Below, piece by piece: positions 8,697-60,801 of a stretch of 64,000 nt of DNA. The first letter of the stretch is position 1. Each line of letters starts with the position of its first letter. The position numbers were made by a program, and so were the translations under genes. The notes under the pieces are model-generated. The model worked only from the letters and a program-made list of their open reading frames with translations, did not search any database and was not told the origin of the DNA. The stretch comes from Caldilineaceae bacterium (GTDB taxonomy: Bacteria > Chloroflexota > Anaerolineae > Caldilineales > Caldilineaceae). The DNA is taken from the NCBI GenBank assembly GCA_965204025.1, contig OZ241972.1, positions 4,762,006 through 4,826,005 on the forward strand, written 5' to 3'.

Positions 8697-8990
8697 GCCG
8701 GCTCTGCGGGGGCTTCGACAAAGCGTTGGACGACGACCTCAAGATGGTGGCACCCCGCGTCCGAGGATTACAACCGGTATCCGCGCTTTAGGGTTCCGCG
8801 CCGGCCACCTGCCCTTCAGGCGTCCGTTCCGTCCTCCTGAACCCTTGTGCCCTGCCTTTCAATGCTGACCTTCCTTGGCCGCACGGACACCGGGCCTTGA
8901 GATGCGCGGGCCTGTACGCGCCTGCCCGCCTAGCCGGATTCCCGCAGCACGCTGTCGATCCGTTCCAGCTGCGCGCCGGTGACGGTGCCG

Positions 8991-9849
8991 CTACACTCCG
9001 TTGCGCCAGCCGTCCTCCTTGCGGTACACGTAGTCGGGGTCCTCGGGGCCCAAAACCCGCAGCCTTTCCTCCACGGGAAAGTCGGTCATCGCCATCCGGA
9101 TCGACTTGCGCGACATGCCCGCAAAAAAAAATTGACCAGCACCGACAGGCTGCCCGCGTCCGCCTGTTGCATGCCATGCAGGTAGGCGTCGCGGTCCTGC
9201 CGCTGGACCAGGAGCGGCAGCCAGCCGTTGCGGATCAGGTGCCAGTTCAACAACACGCGGCCCGTGCGCCCGTTGCCGTCCGCAAAGGGATGGACCTGGA
9301 TGAAACGATGGTGCATCCAGGCCCCCGTCAGCAACGGATGGCGGTTCGCCTCGTAGTCCGCGTACAACTCCAGCAGGATGTCCAGTTGGGGATCCACCTG
9401 CTCGGGCGGCGCGTAGAGATGCTTCGTGCCATCGGGGCGCGTCGGGTTGTTGGGAAAGTCCTTCCACACCCCGCGCCGCAGCGGACGCTGCACGGGCCGG
9501 CCCAGCATGTCGACCGCGTTGTGGGTCTCCTGGTGGGCGGTGATCTGATGCCCGCCGGCGCACCGTCCCCGCGGGTGGCGTCCGCCGGTTCGAATCCGAT
9601 CTCGTCGCGCAGGCGCTGCGCGGATTCAATAATCGGTTGCGCCTGCCGCAGGGCCGCGGTGACGGCTTCCATGCGCGAACCGCCCCGTCCCAGCACAAGA
9701 TCGTCGGTTGCCATGCCTGCGGGCACGTACAGGCGCGCGTTCTTCAACACGGCCGTCCAGCGGCCGTTGTTGTCCTGCACGACCTCGACGGCCGGTGCGG
9801 CCGCGCCGGGGCTCGGGGGTCTCATCACCGGCTCTCGGATGTACCTCAC
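8991..9849 (-). pseudogene. Fic/DOC family protein, two frameshifts
   Basis: Fic motif HPFADGNGRTGRVLLN lies in ORF 9086..9508. The N-terminal part is in ORF 9328..9849. The C-terminal part (AGMSRKSIRMAMTDFPVEERL...) is in a third frame, beyond the A9 run at 9123-9131. Confidence 0.7.
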
Positions 9850-35420: not shown

Positions 35421-36532
35421 ATGCGCATACTTCCGCCCCTGCATCCCACCGACGCCGACTTTGCGGCCATTCGCCGCCGGGATGGCTTCTACGTGGACAA
35501 GACCGGTTTGTTCCGGGATCTGCTTGAGGCGGATCCAAGCCCCCTGTCCAGTTCACCGCTGACCACGCGCCACCAGTTCCTGGCGCGTCCGCGGCGGTTT
35601 GGCAAGACGCTGCTAATCAACACGCTGGAAGCTTGGTTCCAGGGTTGCCGCCGGGTCACAGGGCCAATCCCGAAGGCGACACCAAGCCCCTGGAGGGCCT
35701 GCCCGCGGGCTGGACTTCGCCGCCGTGGCTGTGGGAGGGCCTGGATGCCGAGGACTGGCATGGAACGCATGGCTGGCATCCCGTGATTCGACTGGATTTG
35801 TCCCGTGCGGCGGCTTCATCGCCCGCCGGTACACTCACATACCTGCAGAACTACCTGCACAGCGTGATCCGGTTGTGGAGGCGACGCAGTGGCAGCAGTT
35901 GGATCGGTACCGAGGTTCCGCCCACTGCGTCGCCGGCGGAACTCCTGACCACCCTCGTTGAAGACCTTGCGGAAATTTACGAACCGGAACCCGTGGTCCT
36001 GGTCGACGAGTACGACGCGCCCGTTGTCAACCACATCGGGACCGACCGTTCCCTGGAACCCGCGGTCGCCGAACTCCGCGAATTCATCCGTGTGCTGAAG
36101 GACGACGAGGGCCTGCTCTACGGGGTGTTCGTGACGGGCATCACGCGCTTGGCCAAGCCGCACCTGTTCACCGCGGCCAACAACTTCGTCGACATCTCCG
36201 ACGAGCCCAGGTACGGGGCGCTGTGCGGTTTCACGGAGGACGAAGTGGACCGGCACTTCGCCCCCTACCGGGCGCGCCTCGCGGAACTGGAGCCGGGACT
36301 GGACGATGCGGCCATTCGGGCCGCGTGGCGGGATCTCTACAACGGCTACCGCTTCTCGGAACTGCCCTCGACCCCGCGCGTCTACAACCCCTTCACGCTG
36401 ACCAACGGGGTGTTCCGCGTGCTCGCGGAGCCGGATCGCCGCCGCGTGGCGGCGGACGGCACCTGGCCGTCGGCCTGGGGCGAGTCCGGTCACTCGGGTC
36501 TCATCGCGCGTCTGGCCGCAGACCCGCGCTAG
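35421..36532 (+). pseudogene. AAA-ATPase-like / PDDEXK_9 family, paralogue 2 (frameshifted, 3-prime truncated, abutted by IS630)
   Basis: About 80% similar to paralogue 1. It has caggg-ttgcc at about 35640 where paralogue 1 has cagggg-ttgcc, so one G is missing. The reading frame ends at the IS630 junction and the PD-(D/E)XK C-terminal domain is absent. Confidence 0.75.
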
Positions 36533-43261: not shown

Positions 43262-43711
43262 GAGGCTGTTACCGGGGAGTTGTGCAGCAGAATCTGTCAG
43301 TCCCGTAGACGCCCGGATTCAGTCCTTCCGGTCCAGTCGATGTCGGGGCACAAGTTCCGCCTTCGAGAACTCGCGGTTCTTGCTGCGCACTTGGCCGCGC
43401 GCCGCCAACAGTACTCCGCGGGGCGCGGCCGGAAGGCCCTGCCGGGGCATCTCCTGTCGTTCCGTCTTGTCGAATTGATTGCAGTTCATGGCGGCCTCCT
43501 CGCGTCCCGCGGGTGCGTGGGGTCGAGCGCCAAGGCTCGGGACTCCGTCCCGGGATCATGCCGGGCGGGGTCGAGTAGGGGCGGCGGGCAGTGCCGGTGC
43601 GTCGTGGGGATGCCGATCCAAGTGGGACCGTGCGGCCAACCCCTTTCAGTCTGCTGGTTACAATGCGCCCGTGTCTCGTTGCACGGTGCCAAGTCAACAG
43701 GGGAGACTGCC

Positions 43712-44815
43712 ATGACCGTTGCTCCGTCAACACCTGCCTCGTCTGAAGTTGATATCCAAACGGGACGCGGCCAGTCCGTTCCCGACAGCCCCTCCCCATC
43801 GCGCTGGGCGGACTGGATTCACACGCCTCCCAGCCTCGGGGAAACAGACCCCGCCACGGCGCGCGAGTCGCGGGAAGTGCGCCTCCAGATCCGCTTGGCC
43901 TTCCCCTCCGTGTGGCGCGCCCACTTGGAGGCCTTGCCGCACTACAACCCCGCCTACGCGTACGACGAACGTTACGACTATGAGAATGACTGGACCTCCG
44001 ATTCCGACTATCGCGGGTCCGTCAAGCATTTCCGGGCCTACGACCGGGAGGGGTTTGTCGTGCCGCAAGGGCGACACAACAACTTCATCGGATGGTTGGT
44101 CCGCACACTTCAGGCGGCTTTCGGCCTACGTGTCCTTCGGGAACCCAATCTGCATTTCCTACCCCGGACCAGTGAAGATGTGGCTTTCCTCACCGCAGGC
44201 GGGAAGCCCAAGATCAAGGTACAACCCGATGCCGTGGTGTTGCCCCAGGCCCTTGACACGGACAGGGAGCGCAGCCAAAGGGAGCACAACATCCACTTGG
44301 ACAACGGCGATGCCCTTCCTGAACTGGTGGTGGAAGTGTTGTCGTACAGCACCGAGGACAACGACCTGGGGGAGAAATGGCACTTATATGCTGCGCTGGG
44401 CATCCGGGAGTACCTGCTGATTGACATTGGCGAGCCGAACGATCCCGAGGCTCCCGAAGAGTCCGGGTCTCCCGCCAGCATGTGGCTATACCGCCTTGAT
44501 GCCAACGGTGTTTATCAATTGGTGGAGGATGAGCTGCCTTTGCGCGTCTGCGGCACCCCAATCCGGCTGCAACCAGCCGAAGGCTCCGAAATGCCATACA
44601 TGCAGTGGATGGACAGCACAAGCAGACAATGGCGGGATTTTCGGGACGACATCAAACAAGAAGGACAAATCGAAATCCTGGGGCAGGCTTTGGACGCGTG
44701 CCTGCCCAACTTGGACGTTGCGGATCGGGAATGCATTGTGGCTTTATGGGCTCACGACCGGCATACCGGACAAAATGCTTCACCGGATCATGGAGGCCAG
44801 CCAGGCACCGGATGA
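43712..44815 (+). CDS. Uma2-family (DUF820) PD-(D/E)XK endonuclease with extended termini
   Basis: RBS ggagac. Core motifs VQPDAVVLP...PELVVEVLSYSTEDNDLGEKWHLYAALGIREYLLID. Confidence 0.75.
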   Translation: MTVAPSTPASSEVDIQTGRGQSVPDSPSPSRWADWIHTPPSLGETDPATARESREVRLQIRLAFPSVWRAHLEALPHYNPAYAYDERYDYENDWTSDSDYRGSVKHFRAYDREGFVVPQGRHNNFIGWLVRTLQAAFGLRVLREPNLHFLPRTSEDVAFLTAGGKPKIKVQPDAVVLPQALDTDRERSQREHNIHLDNGDALPELVVEVLSYSTEDNDLGEKWHLYAALGIREYLLIDIGEPNDPEAPEESGSPASMWLYRLDANGVYQLVEDELPLRVCGTPIRLQPAEGSEMPYMQWMDSTSRQWRDFRDDIKQEGQIEILGQALDACLPNLDVADRECIVALWAHDRHTGQNASPDHGGQPGTG

Positions 44816-52772: not shown

Positions 52773-55523
52773 CTACACCCGGACTGAACCGAATGGATCC
52801 CCTTCCGCTCTCTGCACATTGATGGTATCCAGCACATCGGAAGCAACTTCCAGTACTTCAGGGGGAGCGCTTACCTGCTCACGGTTCAGCCATCGCAGCG
52901 CGACTATCACGGGCAACATGCTCGCTCGCACCTTGGGACTTGCTTCCAACACCGAAGGAATCCGATCCAAAAACTTGCCCGATGCACCGGCCCCCATCAA
53001 CGCCTTCGTCATCCCCTGTACGCAATATTCAACATCCGGTTCGAAATCCTCCACCATCGAACCAAGCATGTCGATTGCCTCCATGCTTTCCCTGAAGGTA
53101 TAACACTGAAACAACACACACTCGGCCCACCACCACAGGAATTTGCCTCTGTCGCCTTCAATCTCAGCAATGCCAGGCGACCACTCGTGCACAAGAGCCT
53201 CAGCTGCCTCAAAATTACCAAGCTGCACCAGGCACTCAGCCCGAGGAACGGACCCCGTGGCAGCCCACTCCAAGCCGAAATCGGTCGCAGTTGAAACCCA
53301 ACGTTCCATCCCAAGGCGAAGACAAAGTTCCGCAGAACCAAAGTCGCTCTCGTTCACATGCCTGCCAAACTTCCACGCGACGGCACTCGCGGCCACCTTG
53401 CACAGATCTTCGGACTGGCTGCCCCCAAAACGTGCCAGGGCCAAATCGGCCACTTCCTCTGCCACTGCCACCAATGCCTTGTCCCCATAGTCGGAAGCAT
53501 GATGAAGTATCCACAACATTGCTTGGGCAACCGTCAGTTGCAAGCTTCGCTCTCGACTGTTGCCAAATCTGCGATCCAGGTCGCGGACCGCTCGTCCAAC
53601 ACACGCTTGTCTGCCTAACTGCCATTCGGCTTGAACCAGAAACAACAGTGCTCGGGCCTGGAAGAAACCTAGTTCCTCATCTTCGGATTGACCATAGTCC
53701 TTCAAGTAATCCCGACTCTCACTGACGGCCCTTTCGTAAGCCTCAGTGTCCACCAACACCCGCTGCTTCACTAAAATGGCGCCGGAATACAGATACGTTC
53801 GGTCCGGCTCAGGAAGCCCGGTACAAGCCTCTACGACTTGGTTGCAGCAATGCAATGCCGACTCGTAGTCTTCAACGGAAACATGCGCACGTGCTTTCAT
53901 CACCTTGGTTCGAGCAACCCAAGATCGGAATCTTGCATCCTGAGCAACGAGTTCGGTGTCCACCAATTCCAAGCAGGTTTGGCACAATGCAACAACCGCC
54001 AGCGGCGGGATTTTGCTTTCGTTCTCTATCGCGAAATTAGATAATTGAACGCACTCAAGCGGTCTCGATTCAGTGGCCGGCACGCGTCTCAACCGATGAA
54101 CCAAGTCAACAAGCCGGTTTTCGTCTGCAAACTCCTCATCTCCGCATTGATCCACCATGCACTGCATCTTGCTTAATACTTCCCCCCAAAGATGATGCAG
54201 TGACACTGCCTTGAATTCTTCATCCCACTGTTCCACCCAGCGGTACGCTGCATCCTGGTCGACAAGGACTTGAAGCAGCTGTTCCCGGATGACCTGCCCC
54301 ACGTCGGAACCGTCGCTCAGATCGGCAAAGACTCTCGTTGCGGCCGACGGGTCGTAGAACACCACCATGAACGCGATGAACCTTCGAATGACCGCAGGTT
54401 GGTTGCGCTCCCTCCGCAGGCTGTAGTAGAAACAGAACATCCTTTCGGTCACGGAGTACCTGCGCGACCGGCGGGTTGCCGAGGCACTGACCGCACCTCG
54501 GTCCGTGAGTCTTCCCAGCATCACGGATGTGGTGCGTATGTCCATCCGGGCGCGGTCGGCTATCGCTGACGCGAGCGCAGGCTCCCACAAGTCGGCCAGG
54601 GCCAGAAACACGCGCCGTTCACCGGACGGCAGCGACTCCAAACACTGGCGGAAGTACTCGGTGTGCTCGTCAATGAGACCGACCATGTCCGCCAACAACT
54701 GTTTCAATGTGAACTGGTGACCGACACCGGCTAGGAGCATCAACAGGCGCGGGCTGCCACCGGTCAATATCTCGAAGGGCCTGATTTCCCATGCCGTCAG
54801 GTTTTGACGGGTTGCCATGTTCCAGAGCGCGGCGCACTCCTTGGTCGTCATCGGCCCCAGTTCGATCAAGCGAAACAGATCGAAGAACGCATGGTTCGCG
54901 TCTTGCAGGCTTTTGAACCTGGTGGTAGCGGTGCCAATCAGCATGATCATCGGCTCCGTCTGCAGGACCCTTCTCAAACCCCACTCGTCGTCGTCAGGCC
55001 AGGTTTCCGAGAGCGCCTGGAGGTTTTCCACCATCAATACCATGCGCCTGCCGATGGACGCCAAGCCGCGTTCGATCGCTGCCAGCACGTCAAGGCGTAG
55101 ATGTGTATCCCTCCACCGTGCACAAAACGATGCATGAGCCGCTTCAAGCTCCACTCCTGCGTCCAGGCCCTGCCTGCTGCATTCGCGCCCGAGTTGGAAG
55201 AGCACCTCCAGCCAAAAGCTGGTGAGGTCGGCAACTTCGTAGCTCTCTTCCATGAACCGGACTGGAAGCAGATCGGATGCCAAGCTGCCGTCCAACCTCA
55301 GTTCCGCCTCCAAGCGAGCCAACAGCATGGTCTTGCCCATCCCGCGCGGTGCGACGATTAGTGCATGTTGGCACGATTCGGACGCAAGATTGCGATTGAC
55401 CACCCCCAAGAGGGTTTCCAATGGCCTGTGCCGGACTACAAACTGGTCCACGACCTCCTGATCGGACTGGAACACGCCCGGATTGAACTTGCGGATGGTC
55501 GGGGCCGACGTTTGTTGGGACAT
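52773..55523 (-). CDS. STAND-like P-loop ATPase with wHTH and a C-terminal helical-repeat (TPR-like) region of about 480 aa
   Basis: RBS gaggag sits just after the stop of the upstream gene. Walker A is IVAPRGMGKTMLLARL and Walker B is MVLMVENL. A wHTH-like segment is SGERRVFLALADLW...YSVTERMFCFYYSLR. I saw no effector domain. Confidence 0.75.
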   Translation of the reverse strand: MSQQTSAPTIRKFNPGVFQSDQEVVDQFVVRHRPLETLLGVVNRNLASESCQHALIVAPRGMGKTMLLARLEAELRLDGSLASDLLPVRFMEESYEVADLTSFWLEVLFQLGRECSRQGLDAGVELEAAHASFCARWRDTHLRLDVLAAIERGLASIGRRMVLMVENLQALSETWPDDDEWGLRRVLQTEPMIMLIGTATTRFKSLQDANHAFFDLFRLIELGPMTTKECAALWNMATRQNLTAWEIRPFEILTGGSPRLLMLLAGVGHQFTLKQLLADMVGLIDEHTEYFRQCLESLPSGERRVFLALADLWEPALASAIADRARMDIRTTSVMLGRLTDRGAVSASATRRSRRYSVTERMFCFYYSLRRERNQPAVIRRFIAFMVVFYDPSAATRVFADLSDGSDVGQVIREQLLQVLVDQDAAYRWVEQWDEEFKAVSLHHLWGEVLSKMQCMVDQCGDEEFADENRLVDLVHRLRRVPATESRPLECVQLSNFAIENESKIPPLAVVALCQTCLELVDTELVAQDARFRSWVARTKVMKARAHVSVEDYESALHCCNQVVEACTGLPEPDRTYLYSGAILVKQRVLVDTEAYERAVSESRDYLKDYGQSEDEELGFFQARALLFLVQAEWQLGRQACVGRAVRDLDRRFGNSRERSLQLTVAQAMLWILHHASDYGDKALVAVAEEVADLALARFGGSQSEDLCKVAASAVAWKFGRHVNESDFGSAELCLRLGMERWVSTATDFGLEWAATGSVPRAECLVQLGNFEAAEALVHEWSPGIAEIEGDRGKFLWWWAECVLFQCYTFRESMEAIDMLGSMVEDFEPDVEYCVQGMTKALMGAGASGKFLDRIPSVLEASPKVRASMLPVIVALRWLNREQVSAPPEVLEVASDVLDTINVQRAEGDPFGSVRV

Positions 55524-55542
55524 TCCGTACTCCTCGGCCACT

Positions 55543-56799
55543 TCAGCCTGTATGCAGTGATCGGGTCGCGCCGTACCTGATGCGCCAATAGTCCCCGAGC
55601 CAACGGGACGGGAAGAAGAACAACCGCCGGTCCACATCGTGTTCCAGGTACCCGTCATGTTCCAGGATGTTCAGGATCGTATCGACCCGTTCGCTTGCGT
55701 CGGATACCAGCTTGGAGAACCTTGCGACCACCTGACGCCTTGCCTCACCGGTGAACTCATCCCGCCTCGCCGTTTCGGCCAGAATCGTCATGGCGATCGC
55801 GTAATCGGCATCTTCGTCCAGGACTTGGCGGAGCCGCGTTTCGTAGTGCAACAGTCCGGACTGCCCCTCGGGGCCCAACAGCTGCTGCCGGTATACGGTC
55901 TCCACATCGGCCACTGTCACCACATGCCTGTCTTGGACCCTTGCGTGGTCGGCGATGCGGGCGAAGAAGAGCTGTACATGGTAGGGAATTCCAATCCCCA
56001 GCCTGTCGTAGACAGCCTGCGCGACGCCAGGCTCCACGTGGATTGATTCGCTCCGGGCCAAAGAATCGAAGCATTCGATGCTGGTGGCCCGGTCCCACGG
56101 ACCCAACCGATAGGGGTACAGGTAGTTCACGCGGTCCGGCATGCCAAGCCTTGACACCAGCGGCATCAAACCTATGCTGCCGGTGACCATCAGCGAGAGC
56201 GAGTCCCTGGAAACCTGCTGTACCGTGCTCCGGAGCCAACTGAGGAACCCGTCCACCTGTTCGATTCCGTCGTGATCCCGCAGAAGGCGTTGCAGGAAGA
56301 CGGGCACTTCGTCGATTACCAACAGCACAGGTTGGTCGTGTTGGGCGCCAAATCCGATCAATTCCTGTCCGACGGTTTTCCAATTTCCGCTGTGCACCTG
56401 CGCTCTGAACCGCACTGAGAAGTCGTACAGTTCCACCTCTTCGATGTACGTGGTCCAGGCCTGTCCGAAGAGCTTCTTCCAGCGTGCTCCCAATGGAACC
56501 ACGTTGCGCATCCCGGAGGCGAGCAACGCGATCACGTCTTCCACCGTCGCGGCCTCCTCCACGTCGATGAAGATGAATTGCCAGTCCTCGCCACACAAAC
56601 GACGCCCAAGCTCGCGGGCGATGCTTGTCTTTCCCATTCGCCGCTGCCCGGTCAGCAGTATGTGATTGAAGCTTCGGACCAGCGGACCAAGCACCGCGAG
56701 CTCTCTCCCTGCCCACGAAGTCATCTCCGGTAACCCACGCACCTGTCGAACTGCGCATACCACCTCCTTCCCAATGCTGCTCATCGCCACACTGCACAT
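55543..56799 (-). CDS. archaeal-type (ATPase_2/ORC-like) P-loop ATPase with a C-terminal wHTH
   Basis: Walker A LLTGQRRMGKTSIAREL. Walker B VLLVIDEVPVF. C-terminus ILEHDGYLEHD..FFFPSRWLGDYW, which is DUF234-like. An alternative start lies at 56784. Confidence 0.75.
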   Translation of the reverse strand: MCSVAMSSIGKEVVCAVRQVRGLPEMTSWAGRELAVLGPLVRSFNHILLTGQRRMGKTSIARELGRRLCGEDWQFIFIDVEEAATVEDVIALLASGMRNVVPLGARWKKLFGQAWTTYIEEVELYDFSVRFRAQVHSGNWKTVGQELIGFGAQHDQPVLLVIDEVPVFLQRLLRDHDGIEQVDGFLSWLRSTVQQVSRDSLSLMVTGSIGLMPLVSRLGMPDRVNYLYPYRLGPWDRATSIECFDSLARSESIHVEPGVAQAVYDRLGIGIPYHVQLFFARIADHARVQDRHVVTVADVETVYRQQLLGPEGQSGLLHYETRLRQVLDEDADYAIAMTILAETARRDEFTGEARRQVVARFSKLVSDASERVDTILNILEHDGYLEHDVDRRLFFFPSRWLGDYWRIRYGATRSLHTG

Positions 56800-56803
56800 G
56801 ACA

Positions 56804-56841
56804 CCAACATGTTGTCAACAAAATAGTTGACAACATGTTGG
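56804..56841. promoter_or_regulatory. nested palindrome (putative operator) at the head of the two-ATPase operon
   Basis: ccaacatgttgtcaac-aaaata-gttgacaacatgttgg has perfect 16-bp arms. Each arm holds the self-complementary 10-mer caacatgttg. A TTGACA hexamer reads in both directions. Confidence 0.6.
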
Positions 56842-57630
56842 TTGAAAAGTCGGTTCGGTTTCATCGTGGTCCCATGCGCGAGCAGTCCACCGCCAATGCC
56901 ACGAGAATTGTCGGACCGGCGGGCGCACCAAGCCAACCGCCGGCCAACCCCAGGAAACGCGCCTGTCTCCAACATCCAACGGTCTCTCCTAAGATGTTTG
57001 ACGCTGACAACACGCAGGACTTGCCAGGGACTCTGATCGGCCGGCGATTGCGTGGGCCTATGCAATGCGGATCGCAGTGATAGTCCAACCACCTTGGCGG
57101 AGGCGTGCTCTTCCTATCCCTTCGAAGACTGAGGGTAACCAGCACCATAGGCCATGCCACCATCCATGACCCAGATGGAACAGACGAGATCGAGGACATG
57201 GGGAACAGACTCGTCTCCGCGAACGACGACCATACCGACCTTCGTATGCGTGAGCCCGGGACCGCCATCCCCGACGTCTCTGGGGTAGCCACGCGGCTGA
57301 GCCCCTCGGAATCTTCGACCCTAGCCAATAGACTCGCCCTGCCACCGTACCCGAACCCCAAAGAGCCGAGTGAGCCTGTATTAGAATCGGCTGGCCCTTG
57401 GCGGATGGGTGCCTGCCGGATCCGTGGGCTGGCAACGACATCGGCGTCCCGGTGACGAAGCCGACACCATTGCCGATCCCACGTGGCAACTTGGCAAGTG
57501 CCACCGCCCCGCAGAAGTATTGGTCCCGGGACCAGTTGCAGGTCGCCAGCCACGACCGGGCATTCATCGAAACAACAGGCACATCCGGATGCTGCACCGG
57601 CACGACCCATCCAACAATAAAGAACGGCCG

Positions 57631-58779: not shown

Positions 58780-59664
58780 TCCACGCGTTGCATGGGACAT
58801 GGAGCCATCCGCAGGGTGAGGGCGTTCCTTGCCGTGGTTGGAGTTGTCCGGCCACGCCTTGGGTGACGGTGTCCGGTCCATGGCGAAGGACATCGTGGGA
58901 GCCGGTGACAATGGTCGCCCGGAGGTTCGCCGGCTCCAAGCTGGACACCATTGCTGCTGTAAAACCGGCGCGCCAAAGTGACGCCCTTCTAACAAGGAAG
59001 GTGACAGGCGCGCCGCACCATGTCGGGCGCGCTACATGGCTTCCCGCCCCGGGCCGATCCGGAGGAGTTGAAGGGAGCCCCGACGTGGCACATGGTCACG
59101 CGTGCGGCGTTGCCCATGACCTGCTTGGTCATCGCCATCATCCCGGGTTTCCTGCAGCGTTGAGCCGCTCATGGAACCGGCAGCCGATGGCCCATGCTTC
59201 GGTCGGCTGCCGGGCACGCACGTTCGGTTGGACGCGGTTGGCAGCCATGGACGGGAGGGCCGCGGGCTTCGTCCCGGGTCCGGGACGGACGGAACGCCCT
59301 GCCGCCGGCCCCCGAGCCTGCTGCGGTGCGTGGGTGTTCCAAGGCTAGCCGGCACGGGGTTGGCCGGCACCACGCACTCCGTTCACGGCACCCGTCGTTG
59401 GGTTTGCGGCCCGCGGGCCTGCCGATGGTCGCAGCGCGACGGCGGACGGACCGACCGGGGAGCGAAGCACAGGAGGGCACTTCCCCACTCGTCCCATCGA
59501 GTCCCAGGCACGCCGGCGATTTTGGCATTCCCCACCATGCGAACGTATGCTTGCACTTTCAGGTCGCCGATCCAGGCATCGAGGCCCCGGGATGGACCGG
59601 CCACCGCACCACCGAACCGTCCCGGCCATCGGAAGTCGGGGAAGCCACCTTCAGCGAGGTCACC

Positions 59665-60801
59665 GTGTCGCAGCCGTCGGAACCCACGCCGCCCCCCTTC
59701 TCCCACGACCTGACGGCCAAGTCCATCTTCGCCGAACCGGAGGCAGCCCGGGACCTGGTGGCCCTGCTGGCGGCACGCGAGTGCCCCGAGCTGCAAGGCT
59801 GGACACCCGTGCGCCTGGTGGCCGGCTCGACCGTCACGGCCGACCCGGAACGCCGTCCACCCCAGACCGAGGGACACCGCGACCTGGTCTGGGAACTGGC
59901 GCGCGGCGACCACGACGCGGCGCGGATGCTGCTGCATCTGGAGTTCCAGTCGCAGCGCGATGCCGACATGTCGGAGCGCATGTTCCTGTACGCCCTGCGA
60001 ATGAGCCCCGGCCTGCGCGGGCTGGAGGTCTGCGGGGTGGTGGTCAACACCGGCATCGACCGCTTCGGGGAGTGGTGGAGTCCGGTGCAGGCGGTGGCCG
60101 GTGTGCGCCGGTACGGCTTTCGGGCGGGGGCGCTGCTGGAGATCCACGACCATGCGGTGCCGGGCCTGGAGGGCGGCGCCCATGCGCTGCCGCCGGACAA
60201 CCTGGCCGCGGGCTTCGTGGCGTTGGCGCGGGTGCAGGCGGAGATGACGCGGGGGCGGCGGGCGGCGGCGGCCCTGGTGCTGCCGGTGCTGCGGGAGCTG
60301 ATCCTGCCGCGGGCGTTGGGGACCGCGCCGTCGCTGCGTCGGGCTCTGGGAGCCTGGTTCAAGACGCGTTTCGACGGGCTGTTGGTGGATCGCCCCGACC
60401 TGCGCGCGTTGTTGCGTAGAATCACCTACATTGAGGAGGCGGAGGCAGTCATGTACACATTCGGGCAATACGTGGAAGACGAGAAGAAGGATGCCAAGGC
60501 CGAAGGCGAGGCATTGGGCGAGGCCCGGGGCGAGGCCCGGGGCGAGGCCCGGGGCAAGGCCGAGGGCAAGGCCGAGGGCAAGGCCGAGGGCGAAGCGTTG
60601 GGTGAAACGCGCGGCAGGAAGGAGATCCTCCTTGCGTTCATCCGGCAGGTGTGGGGCGAGGCGGAGGCGGACCGGTGTGCCCGGGAATTGGACACGGCCG
60701 CACTCGACGATCTGCCCGACATCGCGGGTCTGCTGGCGGATCAGGCGGCCGGACGCCGCCCGCGTCTGGGTACCAATGGCCGCACCGAATCCTCGGCGTG
60801 A
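59665..60801 (+). CDS. Rpn-family (PDDEXK_2/YhgA-like) nuclease with a DUF4351-like C-terminus
   Basis: HDLTAKSIFAEPE...DLVWEL...MLLHLEFQSQRDADMSERMFLYAL. The C-terminus is KEILLAFIRQVWGE. The GTG start at 59665 is inferred. Confidence 0.65.
   Translation: MSQPSEPTPPPFSHDLTAKSIFAEPEAARDLVALLAARECPELQGWTPVRLVAGSTVTADPERRPPQTEGHRDLVWELARGDHDAARMLLHLEFQSQRDADMSERMFLYALRMSPGLRGLEVCGVVVNTGIDRFGEWWSPVQAVAGVRRYGFRAGALLEIHDHAVPGLEGGAHALPPDNLAAGFVALARVQAEMTRGRRAAAALVLPVLRELILPRALGTAPSLRRALGAWFKTRFDGLLVDRPDLRALLRRITYIEEAEAVMYTFGQYVEDEKKDAKAEGEALGEARGEARGEARGKAEGKAEGKAEGEALGETRGRKEILLAFIRQVWGEAEADRCARELDTAALDDLPDIAGLLADQAAGRRPRLGTNGRTESSA
60429..60792 (+). repeat. segmental duplication, copy 1 (3-prime end of the Rpn gene)
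   Basis: Near-identical to 61347-61662 apart from the tandem-repeat number and a few substitutions. Confidence 0.85.
60503..60600 (+). repeat. in-frame short tandem repeats (GEAR/GKAE units)
   Basis: ggcgaggcccgg occurs 3 times, then ggcaaggccgag 3 times. The duplicated copy at 61420-61470 carries fewer units. Confidence 0.85.

Follow-up and report, generated by a model that had tools for sequence, protein, structure and literature searches.

A mobile two-gene ATPase cassette with its own palindromic operator in a Caldilineaceae bacterium, a candidate STAND-type sensor and partner

Introduction

Immunity in every domain of life relies centrally on STAND (signal transduction ATPases with numerous domains) and nucleotide-binding leucine-rich repeat (NLR) sensors, and the bacterial STAND sensors characterised so far signal, to our knowledge, via a fused or neighbouring enzymatic effector. 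Here we describe two adjacent minus-strand genes, A and B, that occupy positions 52773-56841 of a 64-kb stretch of contig OZ241972.1 from a Caldilineaceae bacterium; this whole stretch is the window, and all positions follow its numbering. Both genes encode P-loop ATPases and lie behind a palindromic repeat. The original prediction, made by reading the DNA without database searches, took them for one of two things, a STAND-type sensor of two components whose output is not obvious or a pair of regulatory ATPases. Our analysis supports this reading: the genes are co-conserved, they fall in no housekeeping or MalT-like family, and they carry no canonical effector.

The closest described systems on the side of gene B are the Avs/AVAST and bNACHT proteins; phage gene libraries have been co-expressed with Avs families in toxicity screens (10.64898/2026.01.04.697583). 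Gene B resembles these proteins in its STAND nucleotide-binding domain, helical domain, winged helix and long, diversifying and recombining sensor similar to tetratricopeptide repeats (TPR), as well as in its horizontal mobility and in having relatives within defence islands. In contrast to them, the cassette has no fused or adjacent nuclease, protease, SIR2, TIR or transmembrane effector; gene B matches no Avs or NACHT model of PADLOC, has a Walker B of the form hhhhEN, is obligatorily paired with a second ATPase in the present clade, and lies behind a conserved self-operator. The MalT/LAL regulators and Pyrococcus horikoshii PH0952 (6mfv) share with gene B the order ATPase, winged helix and TPR-like sensor, together with a DNA operator. 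However, gene B lacks the C-terminal LuxR-type helix-turn-helix of the MalT/LAL proteins, no adjacent regulated genes are conserved in the 80 loci described below, and the cassette operator overlaps a consensus -35 box, suggesting repression and not activation.

Gene A compares with the PF01637 ATPases (SSO1545, PABY2304) and with Orc1/Cdc6, which have the same AAA+ core, lid and C-terminal winged helix; a DUF234-type member of PF01637 found in metagenomes even has the same operator motif upstream. Unlike such members, gene A has no DUF234/PD-(D/E)XK module (DUF234 is listed as PD-(D/E)XK; PMC3424549), and its C-terminus is all-alpha plus a wing. It is also bacterial, coupled to a STAND partner and without an apparent link to replication origins. 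The likeness to Orc1/Cdc6 is one of fold alone; the loci are chromosomal, their contexts are variable and the palindromes overlap a promoter. By analogy, the pair also recalls plant NLR pairs, in which a variable sensor and a conserved helper are encoded side by side: here too, two STAND-class ATPase genes are adjacent, one variable and one conserved. There is no homology beyond the ATPase class, however, and the conserved partner of the present pair has no executioner domain. The parts of the cassette thus belong to known superfamilies (STAND/NACHT-like and PF01637/ORC-like), whereas the cassette as a whole, which combines two ATPases and a portable operator with an EN Walker B and a conserved tail in gene B and has no effector, is apparently undescribed.

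Results

Genes A and B are inherited together

Gene B (52773-55523, minus strand) encodes 916 amino acids, and the P-loop frame of gene A corresponds to the open reading frame (ORF) at 55543-56799 on the same strand. The original description of two minus-strand genes separated by a 19-nt gap with a gaggag ribosome-binding site agrees with the sequence: the gap spans 55524-55542, and the GAGGAG lies 7 nt ahead of the gene B ATG. A lower GC content than in the flanks, which had been judged by eye, was borne out by measurement (0.544-0.60 over the gene pair against 0.61-0.70).

To collect related loci we combined a pattern scan with a tblastn scan and kept one genome per species, which gave 80 loci with gene A homologues of 49-93% identity. 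Gene B lies directly downstream of gene A in 79 of them, and the sole exception is a contig that ends inside gene A. Most copies do not have the 19-nt gap of the window; in 40 of about 70 loci an ATGA combines the stop codon of A with the start codon of B, and 7 others show a 1-nt overlap. The distance matrices of A and of the N-terminal part of B are correlated (r = 0.87, Mantel p = 0.001). These data show that A and B are co-inherited and, as the overlapping codons indicate, usually translationally coupled, which answers in the affirmative the question of co-occurrence on which the original prediction had hung.

The 80 loci, nearly all of them in metagenome-assembled genomes (MAGs), span at least 11 phyla, with representatives in Chloroflexota, Latescibacterota, Acidobacteriota, Gemmatimonadota, Binatia, Alpha- and Gammaproteobacteria, Desulfobacterota, Nitrospirota, Nitrospinota and Spirochaetota. 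Judging from bin names, which were partly checked, many of the host MAGs probably derive from sponge or coral metagenomes; the wider family extends to soil and other metagenomes and to plasmids of Agrobacterium, Sphingobium and Moraxella. Distances within a phylum (0.34) are close to those between phyla (0.38), and for 18 of 43 loci the nearest neighbour belongs to another phylum, as for a Desulfobacterota/Alphaproteobacteria pair at 83% identity. This pattern argues that transfer of the cassette between phyla is extensive. At least one genome, from Caldilineaceae, has two divergent cassettes. A 187-aa gene called upstream of the pair in the syntenic locus L083 was discarded as spurious; it is of low complexity and broken across frames in the window.

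Gene B has a STAND architecture and a diversifying solenoid

Gene B is intact, with a ribosome-binding site and a stop codon at 52773-52775; its product is 100% identical to P0001 and has more than 2300 homologues. The AlphaFold2 (AF2) model has a mean predicted local distance difference test (pLDDT) score of 79.7 and arranges the protein as nucleotide-binding domain, helical domain, winged helix (residues 300-360) and solenoid. Foldseek ranks the STAND-TPR protein 6mfv first among the Protein Data Bank (PDB) matches of this model, with ORC1/Cdc6 and Apaf-1 next, and also matches a TIR-NLR. In Pfam, gene B matches AAA_16 and AAA_22, and its homologue in Moraxella (L082, 24% identical) exceeds the NACHT cut-off (30.2 vs 26.7 bits). 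Specifically, sequence and model together give gene B the features that define a STAND protein: a P-loop with Walker A and B motifs, a nucleotide-binding oligomerization (NOD) module and a C-terminal repeat sensor. The label 'STAND-like' in the original prediction therefore stands, on the strength of the 6mfv and Apaf-1 fold matches and of the homologue above the NACHT threshold.

Several short motifs are conserved along the ATPase part. Near the N-terminus, the peptide IRKFNPG (55476-55496, minus strand, as are all gene features below) has R11, K12, F13, N14, P15 and G16 invariant or nearly so in alignment A2. Residues 1-26 have a pLDDT below 50 in the monomer model, and we suggest that the peptide may be a docking motif. 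Walker A reads APRGMGKT (55329-55352; R60, G61, G63 and K64 invariant; family form APRGxGKT), and a GxP/sensor-2 motif, TGGSPRLL, follows at 54741-54764 with G256, P258 and R259 invariant. Walker B, MVLMVEN (55023-55043), has E166 and N167 invariant, and N167 is kept even in plasmid homologues at 19-28% identity. Because this hhhhEN form is without the catalytic glutamate, ATP hydrolysis is predicted to be slow or absent; gene B probably binds ATP but hydrolyses it poorly.

The winged helix (54444-54626) is TrmB/DUF7342-like (Pfam PF24033, E = 1e-4), with helices at residues 300-341 and strands at 345-358 in the AF2 model; PF01978 and PF03965 are listed for gene B homologues, and matches to Csa3/CasR winged helix-turn-helix domains are weak. 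Beyond it lies a region of helical repeats (52974-54326) that is modelled as an all-alpha solenoid of degenerate TPR type with a pLDDT of 85-96. The window protein has weak TPR matches in Pfam and its homologues have strong ones. About 480 amino acids of helical repeats had been predicted; the repeats are there, but the solenoid proper covers residues 400-850, about 450 amino acids, with the all-alpha model continuing to residue 906. The protein ends in a conserved tail (52776-52973; PL.VALR...APPEVLEVA.DI) in which P871, L876, P887, E889, V893 and D896 are invariant in alignment A2, and which is also kept in solo homologues from Agrobacterium and Sphingobium. Pfam finds no LuxR/GerE helix-turn-helix in gene B, whose C-terminus is this helical tail, and no NCBIfam name is assigned, so that membership of a housekeeping or MalT-like family, raised at the outset as the reading that would undo a sensor, finds no backing here.

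Although gene B as a whole is under purifying selection (dN/dS 0.24-0.28 vs relatives), its two halves evolve differently: the solenoid is 17-22% identical among homologues vs about 50% in the N-terminal 400 residues. Comparison with the syntenic L083 locus locates a segment at residues 481-840 (53004-54083, inside the repeat region) with dS of 0.42-0.82, against 0.08-0.28 in the flanks, and with similar dN/dS. This 3- to 8-fold excess of synonymous divergence coincides with the GC minimum of the region (0.544), and we interpret the segment as a recombined part of the sensor. The divergence of the solenoid (about 20% vs about 50% identity), the recombinant segment of high dS and low GC, and the additional gene B paralogues at four loci lead us to predict a sensor-like role for gene B. 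Those paralogues, of about 815-819 aa, lie 3-4 kb downstream of the pair in Latescibacterota (L005, L007, L020 and L042).

Gene A is an archaeal-type ATPase interrupted by a frameshift

Gene A belongs to a family of 576 clusters at 50% identity with E <= 1e-30 (3730 with E <= 1e-3), and its intact length in orthologues is about 405 aa. The window protein has a Walker A motif, GQRRMGKT (56626-56649), a Walker B motif, LLVIDEV (56305-56325), of the canonical hhhhDE form, and a GxP motif, GIGIPYHVQ (55972-55998); the Walker motifs of both proteins, PRGMGKT and MVLMVEN of gene B included, are all found as first read. Its only Pfam matches are the generic AAA_16 and AAA_22. The PF01637 family, which precomputed Pfam annotation lists for most homologues, is not matched by the window protein and reaches 18.3 bits in the intact orthologue P0122 (90% identical) vs a cut-off of 33.2; Pfam also gives no match to the DUF234 module (PF03008).

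An AF2 model of P0122 (pLDDT 83.9) has as its top Foldseek matches 2fna (SSO1545, E = 5.5e-11) and 2qen (PABY2304, E = 3.3e-10), with TM scores of about 0.6, and archaeal and eukaryotic ORC/Cdc6 proteins rank after them (E = 5e-11 to 1e-9 across the best matches). Residues 223-396 are modelled as helices plus a two-strand wing; in the window, the C-terminal winged helix lies around HDGYLE (55642-55659). The modelled fold is thus of the archaeal-ATPase/ORC-Cdc6 type, with an AAA+ core, a lid and a C-terminal winged helix, and the matches to 2fna and 2qen bear out the earlier label 'archaeal-type ATPase'. More generally, the winged-helix-like segments and helical repeats first noticed in the two proteins are supported by the AF2 models and by Pfam (AAA_16, AAA_22, the DUF7342 winged helix and weak TPR).

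The original reading did not include a frameshift, which emerges when gene A is compared with its orthologues. These all begin MRSSTGAWVTGDDFVGRERE, and the window encodes that peptide from an ATG at 56758, off the P-loop frame. In tblastn, residues 1-19 of P0122 match at 100% identity in frame -1 (MRSSTGAWVTGDDFVGRER, 56702-56758), which marks the true 5' end of the gene, and residues 19-404 plus the stop codon match at 90% identity in frame -2 (55543-56706). A ribosome-binding site, GGGAAGGAGG (56763-56772), is read directly ahead of the true start. DNA alignment with L002, L004 and L001 shows a (GA)5 run at 56701-56710 that is 2 nt shorter in the window, and this 2-nt deletion shifts the frame at codon 19. 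The (GA) run could be a recurrent slippage site.

The same frameshift allele is present in P0121, P0259 and P0261, and the intact, otherwise matching 405-aa alleles P0258 and P0262 share a 90% identity cluster with the frameshifted ones. Because the allele recurs in other assemblies beside intact ones, it is probably a real polymorphism rather than an error of the present assembly. A second lesion is found in L002, a related Caldilineaceae MAG (OY760647.1), in which a 936-bp IS5-family element (8895-9830) interrupts the gene A orthologue at codon 297; its transposase is encoded on the opposite strand, its terminal repeats are GAGGGTGTTT.../...AAACACCCTC, and the target duplication is CTGAG-like. 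Gene B is intact in both genomes despite these lesions. Since gene B is full length and both genes are under purifying selection vs relatives (dN/dS 0.11-0.12 for gene A), the lesions appear to be recent. Gene A is probably non-functional in the window genome, which would leave the cassette crippled or reduced to gene B alone.

A conserved operator overlaps the promoter of the cassette

Upstream of gene A is a perfect inverted repeat with a 6-nt spacer (56803-56842; arms 56803-56819 and 56826-56842, 100% complementary). It had been described as perfect, which it is, and as 16 bp long, where we measure 17 bp. The repeat reads GTTGTCAAC-TATTTT-GTTGACAAC, with CAACATGTTG flanking each side; this self-complementary decamer, of which two copies had been noted, has no further copy in the 64 kb beyond these two, which both lie within the repeat. 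A TTGACA hexamer resembling a -35 box lies at 56813-56818, in the gene-proximal arm. We rejected a sigma-70 promoter at the window repeat, because a scan of the gene strand past TTGACA gave no good -10 box.

The repeat belongs to a family-wide motif. The 150 nt upstream of gene A (10.2 kb in total) contain 82 matches to the core GTTGNCAAC, against 15 in the other 1.06 Mb of these loci, a 568-fold enrichment; the core is found upstream of A in 60 of 68 loci, at positions that cluster 58-66 and 73-79 nt before the start codon. The palindrome is thereby established as a real conserved cis-element. Anchored on TTGACA, the consensus is CAACAAAATTG-TTGACA-ACAAnTTTGTTGAAT..TAnnnT, or in full tCAACAAAattG-TTGACA-ACAa.tTTGTTGaaT..Ta...T (as a single sequence, CAACAAAATTGTTGACAACAAATTTGTTG). 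It consists of two 14-bp palindromes, CAAC-N6-GTTG, joined via the -35 hexamer, and about 17 nt further downstream a TAnnnT -10 box follows. In the clade of the window the motif is rearranged to GTTGTCAAC-N6-GTTGACAAC, flanked by CAACATGTTG, and this form is kept in L002, L004 and L083. On the Moraxella osloensis plasmid pNP7-2 (L082:6780-6997), AACTATA-N4-TATAGTT occurs twice around TTGACT ahead of the distant A-like gene, so that the layout is the same and the half-sites differ. Within the window, the only other sites are four isolated GTTGNCAAC cores in GC-rich coding sequence, without the extended motif.

We also considered whether the repeat acts as RNA, as an RNA element or a terminator, and rejected this: it has no match in Rfam, no terminator-like site and no T-run after the stem, and in most homologous loci the motif is kept without hairpin potential. 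These observations argue that the repeat is a DNA site and not an RNA structure. Because the operator overlaps the consensus -35 box, we infer that the cassette is autorepressed by one of its own winged helices, that of A or that of B.

A blind scan of metagenome contigs for CAAC-N6-GTTGACAAC-N6-GTTG returned 120 matches. Nineteen lie just upstream of gene A homologues, some only 34-38% identical, with gene B next wherever the contig allowed. Eight others, the next largest class, lie 7 nt upstream of genes for ArsR-family winged-helix repressors, which shows that such palindromes are winged-helix operators; the ArsR genes themselves represent an unrelated operon type with a look-alike operator. 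Their contigs (L087, L130, L148, L152, L160, L167, L177 and L193) have a tandem layout, TATTCAACC-N4-GGTTGACAACC-N4-GGTTGAATA, and three of them have another gene cluster close by. Three further contigs (L102, L125 and L203) encode a PF01637 ATPase of the DUF234 type (about 470 aa; 86-94% identity between contigs), with CAAC-N6-GTTGACAAC-N6-GTTG 11-94 nt before the start, a hint that the operator type may be shared more widely among archaeal-type ATPases.

Comparison with named systems

The original prediction could not name the architecture, and neither can PADLOC, NCBIfam or Pfam, none of which has a match for it. NCBIfam contains no named match to A or B, and sequence searches of the PDB return only P-loop matches to RFC. 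A PADLOC search with 24 gene A and 34 gene B family members yields weak, partial matches to Csa3/CARF3 winged helix-turn-helix domains, to mad8 and, once and weakly, to PDC-M05A. The mad8 model (PDLC04140) is matched weakly by 19 of the 24 A homologues (best E = 1e-7) in the N-terminal P-loop region, but only about 60 residues around Walker A align and no other MADS genes are present; we therefore rejected the cassette as a member of MADS. The Pfam and PADLOC runs that had been proposed as checks thus found no DUF234 in A, no defence model and weak TPR in B. Neither an effector domain nor a match to a known Avs model turned up, in keeping with the initial statement that no effector is visible in either protein. 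A cryptic effector fold was also rejected: structure prediction of the start of B and of its repeats, likewise proposed, gives only AAA+/winged-helix and all-alpha solenoid folds, with the first 30 or so residues disordered. The A-B pair is not described in the literature searched; the STAND census and the DefensePredictor text make no mention of it in the parts available to us, which for the census do not include its clade tables.

Distant relatives near defence genes

Distant members of the family occur next to known defence genes. The pair on Moraxella osloensis pNP7-2, whose gene B is homologous with an hhalign probability of 99.6%, has QatC/QatD and a PD-T4-6-like kinase on one side and a dUTPase, a phosphoribosyltransferase, a CARF6-like protein and a methylase on the other, and the pair in Segatella copri adjoins WYL and DUF262 genes. 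Gene B is also found without gene A: on a plasmid of Sphingobium baderi (L206:1043-4144) it lies beside Pycsar and AbiEi/AbiEii, and on Agrobacterium pAtCFBP7129a (L205:6959-10195) beside two adenylate/guanylate cyclases, ThiF and Tn3. These solo homologues are full length and have the same N-terminal peptide, EN Walker B and C-terminal tail. The region upstream of the Agrobacterium gene carries GTTGCCAAC and CAACAATTTTGTTG.

Discussion

We favour, with somewhat less than even confidence, a cassette that encodes a self-repressed, defence-type sensor of the NLR/Avs kind together with a partner ATPase. The locus is one copy of a mobile, self-contained two-gene cassette. A cassette-encoded winged helix would sit on the palindromes over the -35 box and keep expression of A and B low until the solenoid of gene B binds a trigger, most likely a phage or other mobile-element protein. 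ATP-bound gene B may then oligomerise and stay on, as its Walker B is without the catalytic residue, and gene A may serve as the hydrolysing partner or 'helper' subunit. The output would come from the ATPase and winged-helix assembly, which might act on DNA or on the trigger, or burn ATP, with no fused nuclease, NADase or protease behind it. In the window genome, gene B would act alone, as the solo homologues presumably do, or the locus would be decaying. A more detailed version of this idea, which we consider unlikely as it stands, makes the cassette an effector-less immune or conflict module and a bacterial counterpart of the sensor/helper NLR pairs, in which B would detect an invader and pass the signal on to A, which would act directly on DNA, for example by blocking or remodelling replication of the invader or host, with no nuclease, NADase or pore involved, the whole being silenced by its operator and traded across phyla in sponge and coral microbiomes.

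Several observations weigh against a defence-type sensor. Among 122 neighbours surveyed at 30 loci of the close family, most are metabolic or regulatory (PhyH, Reg_prop, sigma-54 activators, enolases); about 5 of the 122 are defence genes, so that no defence-island enrichment is seen, and the evidence from defence islands amounts to a handful of distant plasmid examples. The pair is surrounded in the window by a sugar ABC transporter, an SH3 protein, GH116 and Uma2. PADLOC-DB v2.0.0 has no family for the window proteins, and no effector domain or fold appears in A or B in Pfam, PADLOC, NCBIfam, PDB sequence or Foldseek searches. Nor does a neighbour supply one consistently: all-vs-all ORF clustering of the 80 loci returns no third conserved gene besides A, B and antisense or alternative-frame shadows. 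No copy was found in phages or viruses, with no tblastn match in 50,697 phage records and none in IMG/VR. The physical partnership of A and B is itself putative, and gene A was disrupted independently in the window (frameshift) and in L002 (IS5), which shows it to be dispensable at least in Caldilineaceae. Finally, operator-like motifs precede both the solo gene B of Agrobacterium and a solo A-like gene of Methylomonas, and so favour neither protein as the binder.

The main rival, which we regard as possible though doubtful, is that the pair forms a split MalT-like regulator in which B senses a small molecule or host signal with its TPR solenoid and A and/or B binds, by a winged helix, the cassette's own promoter and an unlinked regulon; the cassette would then be an accessory for regulation rather than immunity. 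Winged helices of transcription-factor type in both proteins (TrmB, MarR and Csa3-like matches), a conserved operator that overlaps the promoter, a STAND-plus-TPR architecture common to MalT/LAL and PH0952 (6mfv), metabolic and regulatory neighbours in place of defence genes, and the absence of an effector domain from both proteins are all consistent with it. Against it, no target genes are conserved beside the cassette in the 80 loci; operator cores within ±8 kb are no more frequent than chance predicts (15 in 1.06 Mb), the window has four others, all isolated and inside GC-rich coding sequence, and neither LuxR/GerE nor any other dedicated output DNA-binding domain is present. The regulon would moreover need recreating in each of at least 11 phyla after transfer, and sensor recombination and relatives in plasmid defence islands suit conflict systems better.

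Two other explanations bear on the window copy and on the habitat of the family. With gene A inactivated by the frameshift, the window copy may be a decaying remnant that is no longer a unit, whatever the role of intact copies, an outcome we think distinctly unlikely. The deletion strips the invariant T5, G6, V9, F14 and R17 from the P-loop frame, alternative in-frame starts have no well-spaced ribosome-binding site, the related L002 gene is split by its IS5 element, and other truncated alleles occur in the 90% identity cluster. Yet gene B is full length and the low dN/dS of both genes marks the lesion as recent; the frameshift allele recurs in several assemblies beside intact ones and could be tolerated or switchable; the sequence from E20 on, with every ATPase motif, is in frame with upstream ATGs at 56784 and 56799; and solo gene B homologues exist elsewhere. 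We give even less weight to a selfish module for addiction or maintenance, or to a factor in the symbiosis of host-associated marine bacteria; either would persist through horizontal mobility rather than for defence or regulation, and the TPR protein might, for instance, interact with proteins of the host or community. Sponge symbionts recurrently encode TPR proteins, the closest 80 copies are overwhelmingly MAGs with names that suggest sponge or coral in at least 11 phyla with transfer between them, and a tightly self-repressed two-gene unit resembles a toxin-antitoxin layout. Against this very improbable alternative, reading of the sequences and models, with no dedicated predictor run, revealed no secretion signal or membrane segment; AF2 gives a soluble all-alpha solenoid; no toxin-like domain is present; A is lost while B is retained; the wider family reaches soil and other metagenomes and the Agrobacterium, Sphingobium and Moraxella plasmids; and neither phage records nor viral contigs contain the cassette.

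What sets the cassette apart is the combination of a large family (576 clusters for A) that moves between phyla, the absence of an effector, a sensor Walker B that looks dead for hydrolysis, an ORC-like partner and a dedicated operator. Should it prove to be a defence system, NLR-like sensors would gain a new kind of output, and the immune repertoire of sponge and coral symbionts, so far poorly explored, a habitat-linked member; should it prove to be a regulator, the design would be a new, split MalT-like one that travels with its own cis-element. With the operator sequence, both proteins and natural loss-of-A alleles in hand, the question is directly testable either way.

Other features of the window

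No tRNA or integration landmarks are found within window positions 40-64 kb. On the plus strand, 59194-60801 is a 535-aa ORF in a stretch of 70% GC, with C-terminal KAEG/EARG/EALG repeats and without a Pfam match, that looked like an Rpn/transposase-like PD-(D/E)XK protein. Two further plus-strand genes are unlinked to the cassette: 43280-44815 encodes 511 aa that include a Uma2 domain, a putative restriction endonuclease, and 35633-36532 is a 299-aa ORF with a VLVDEYD motif that recalls AAA-ATPase-like/PDDEXK_9 proteins.

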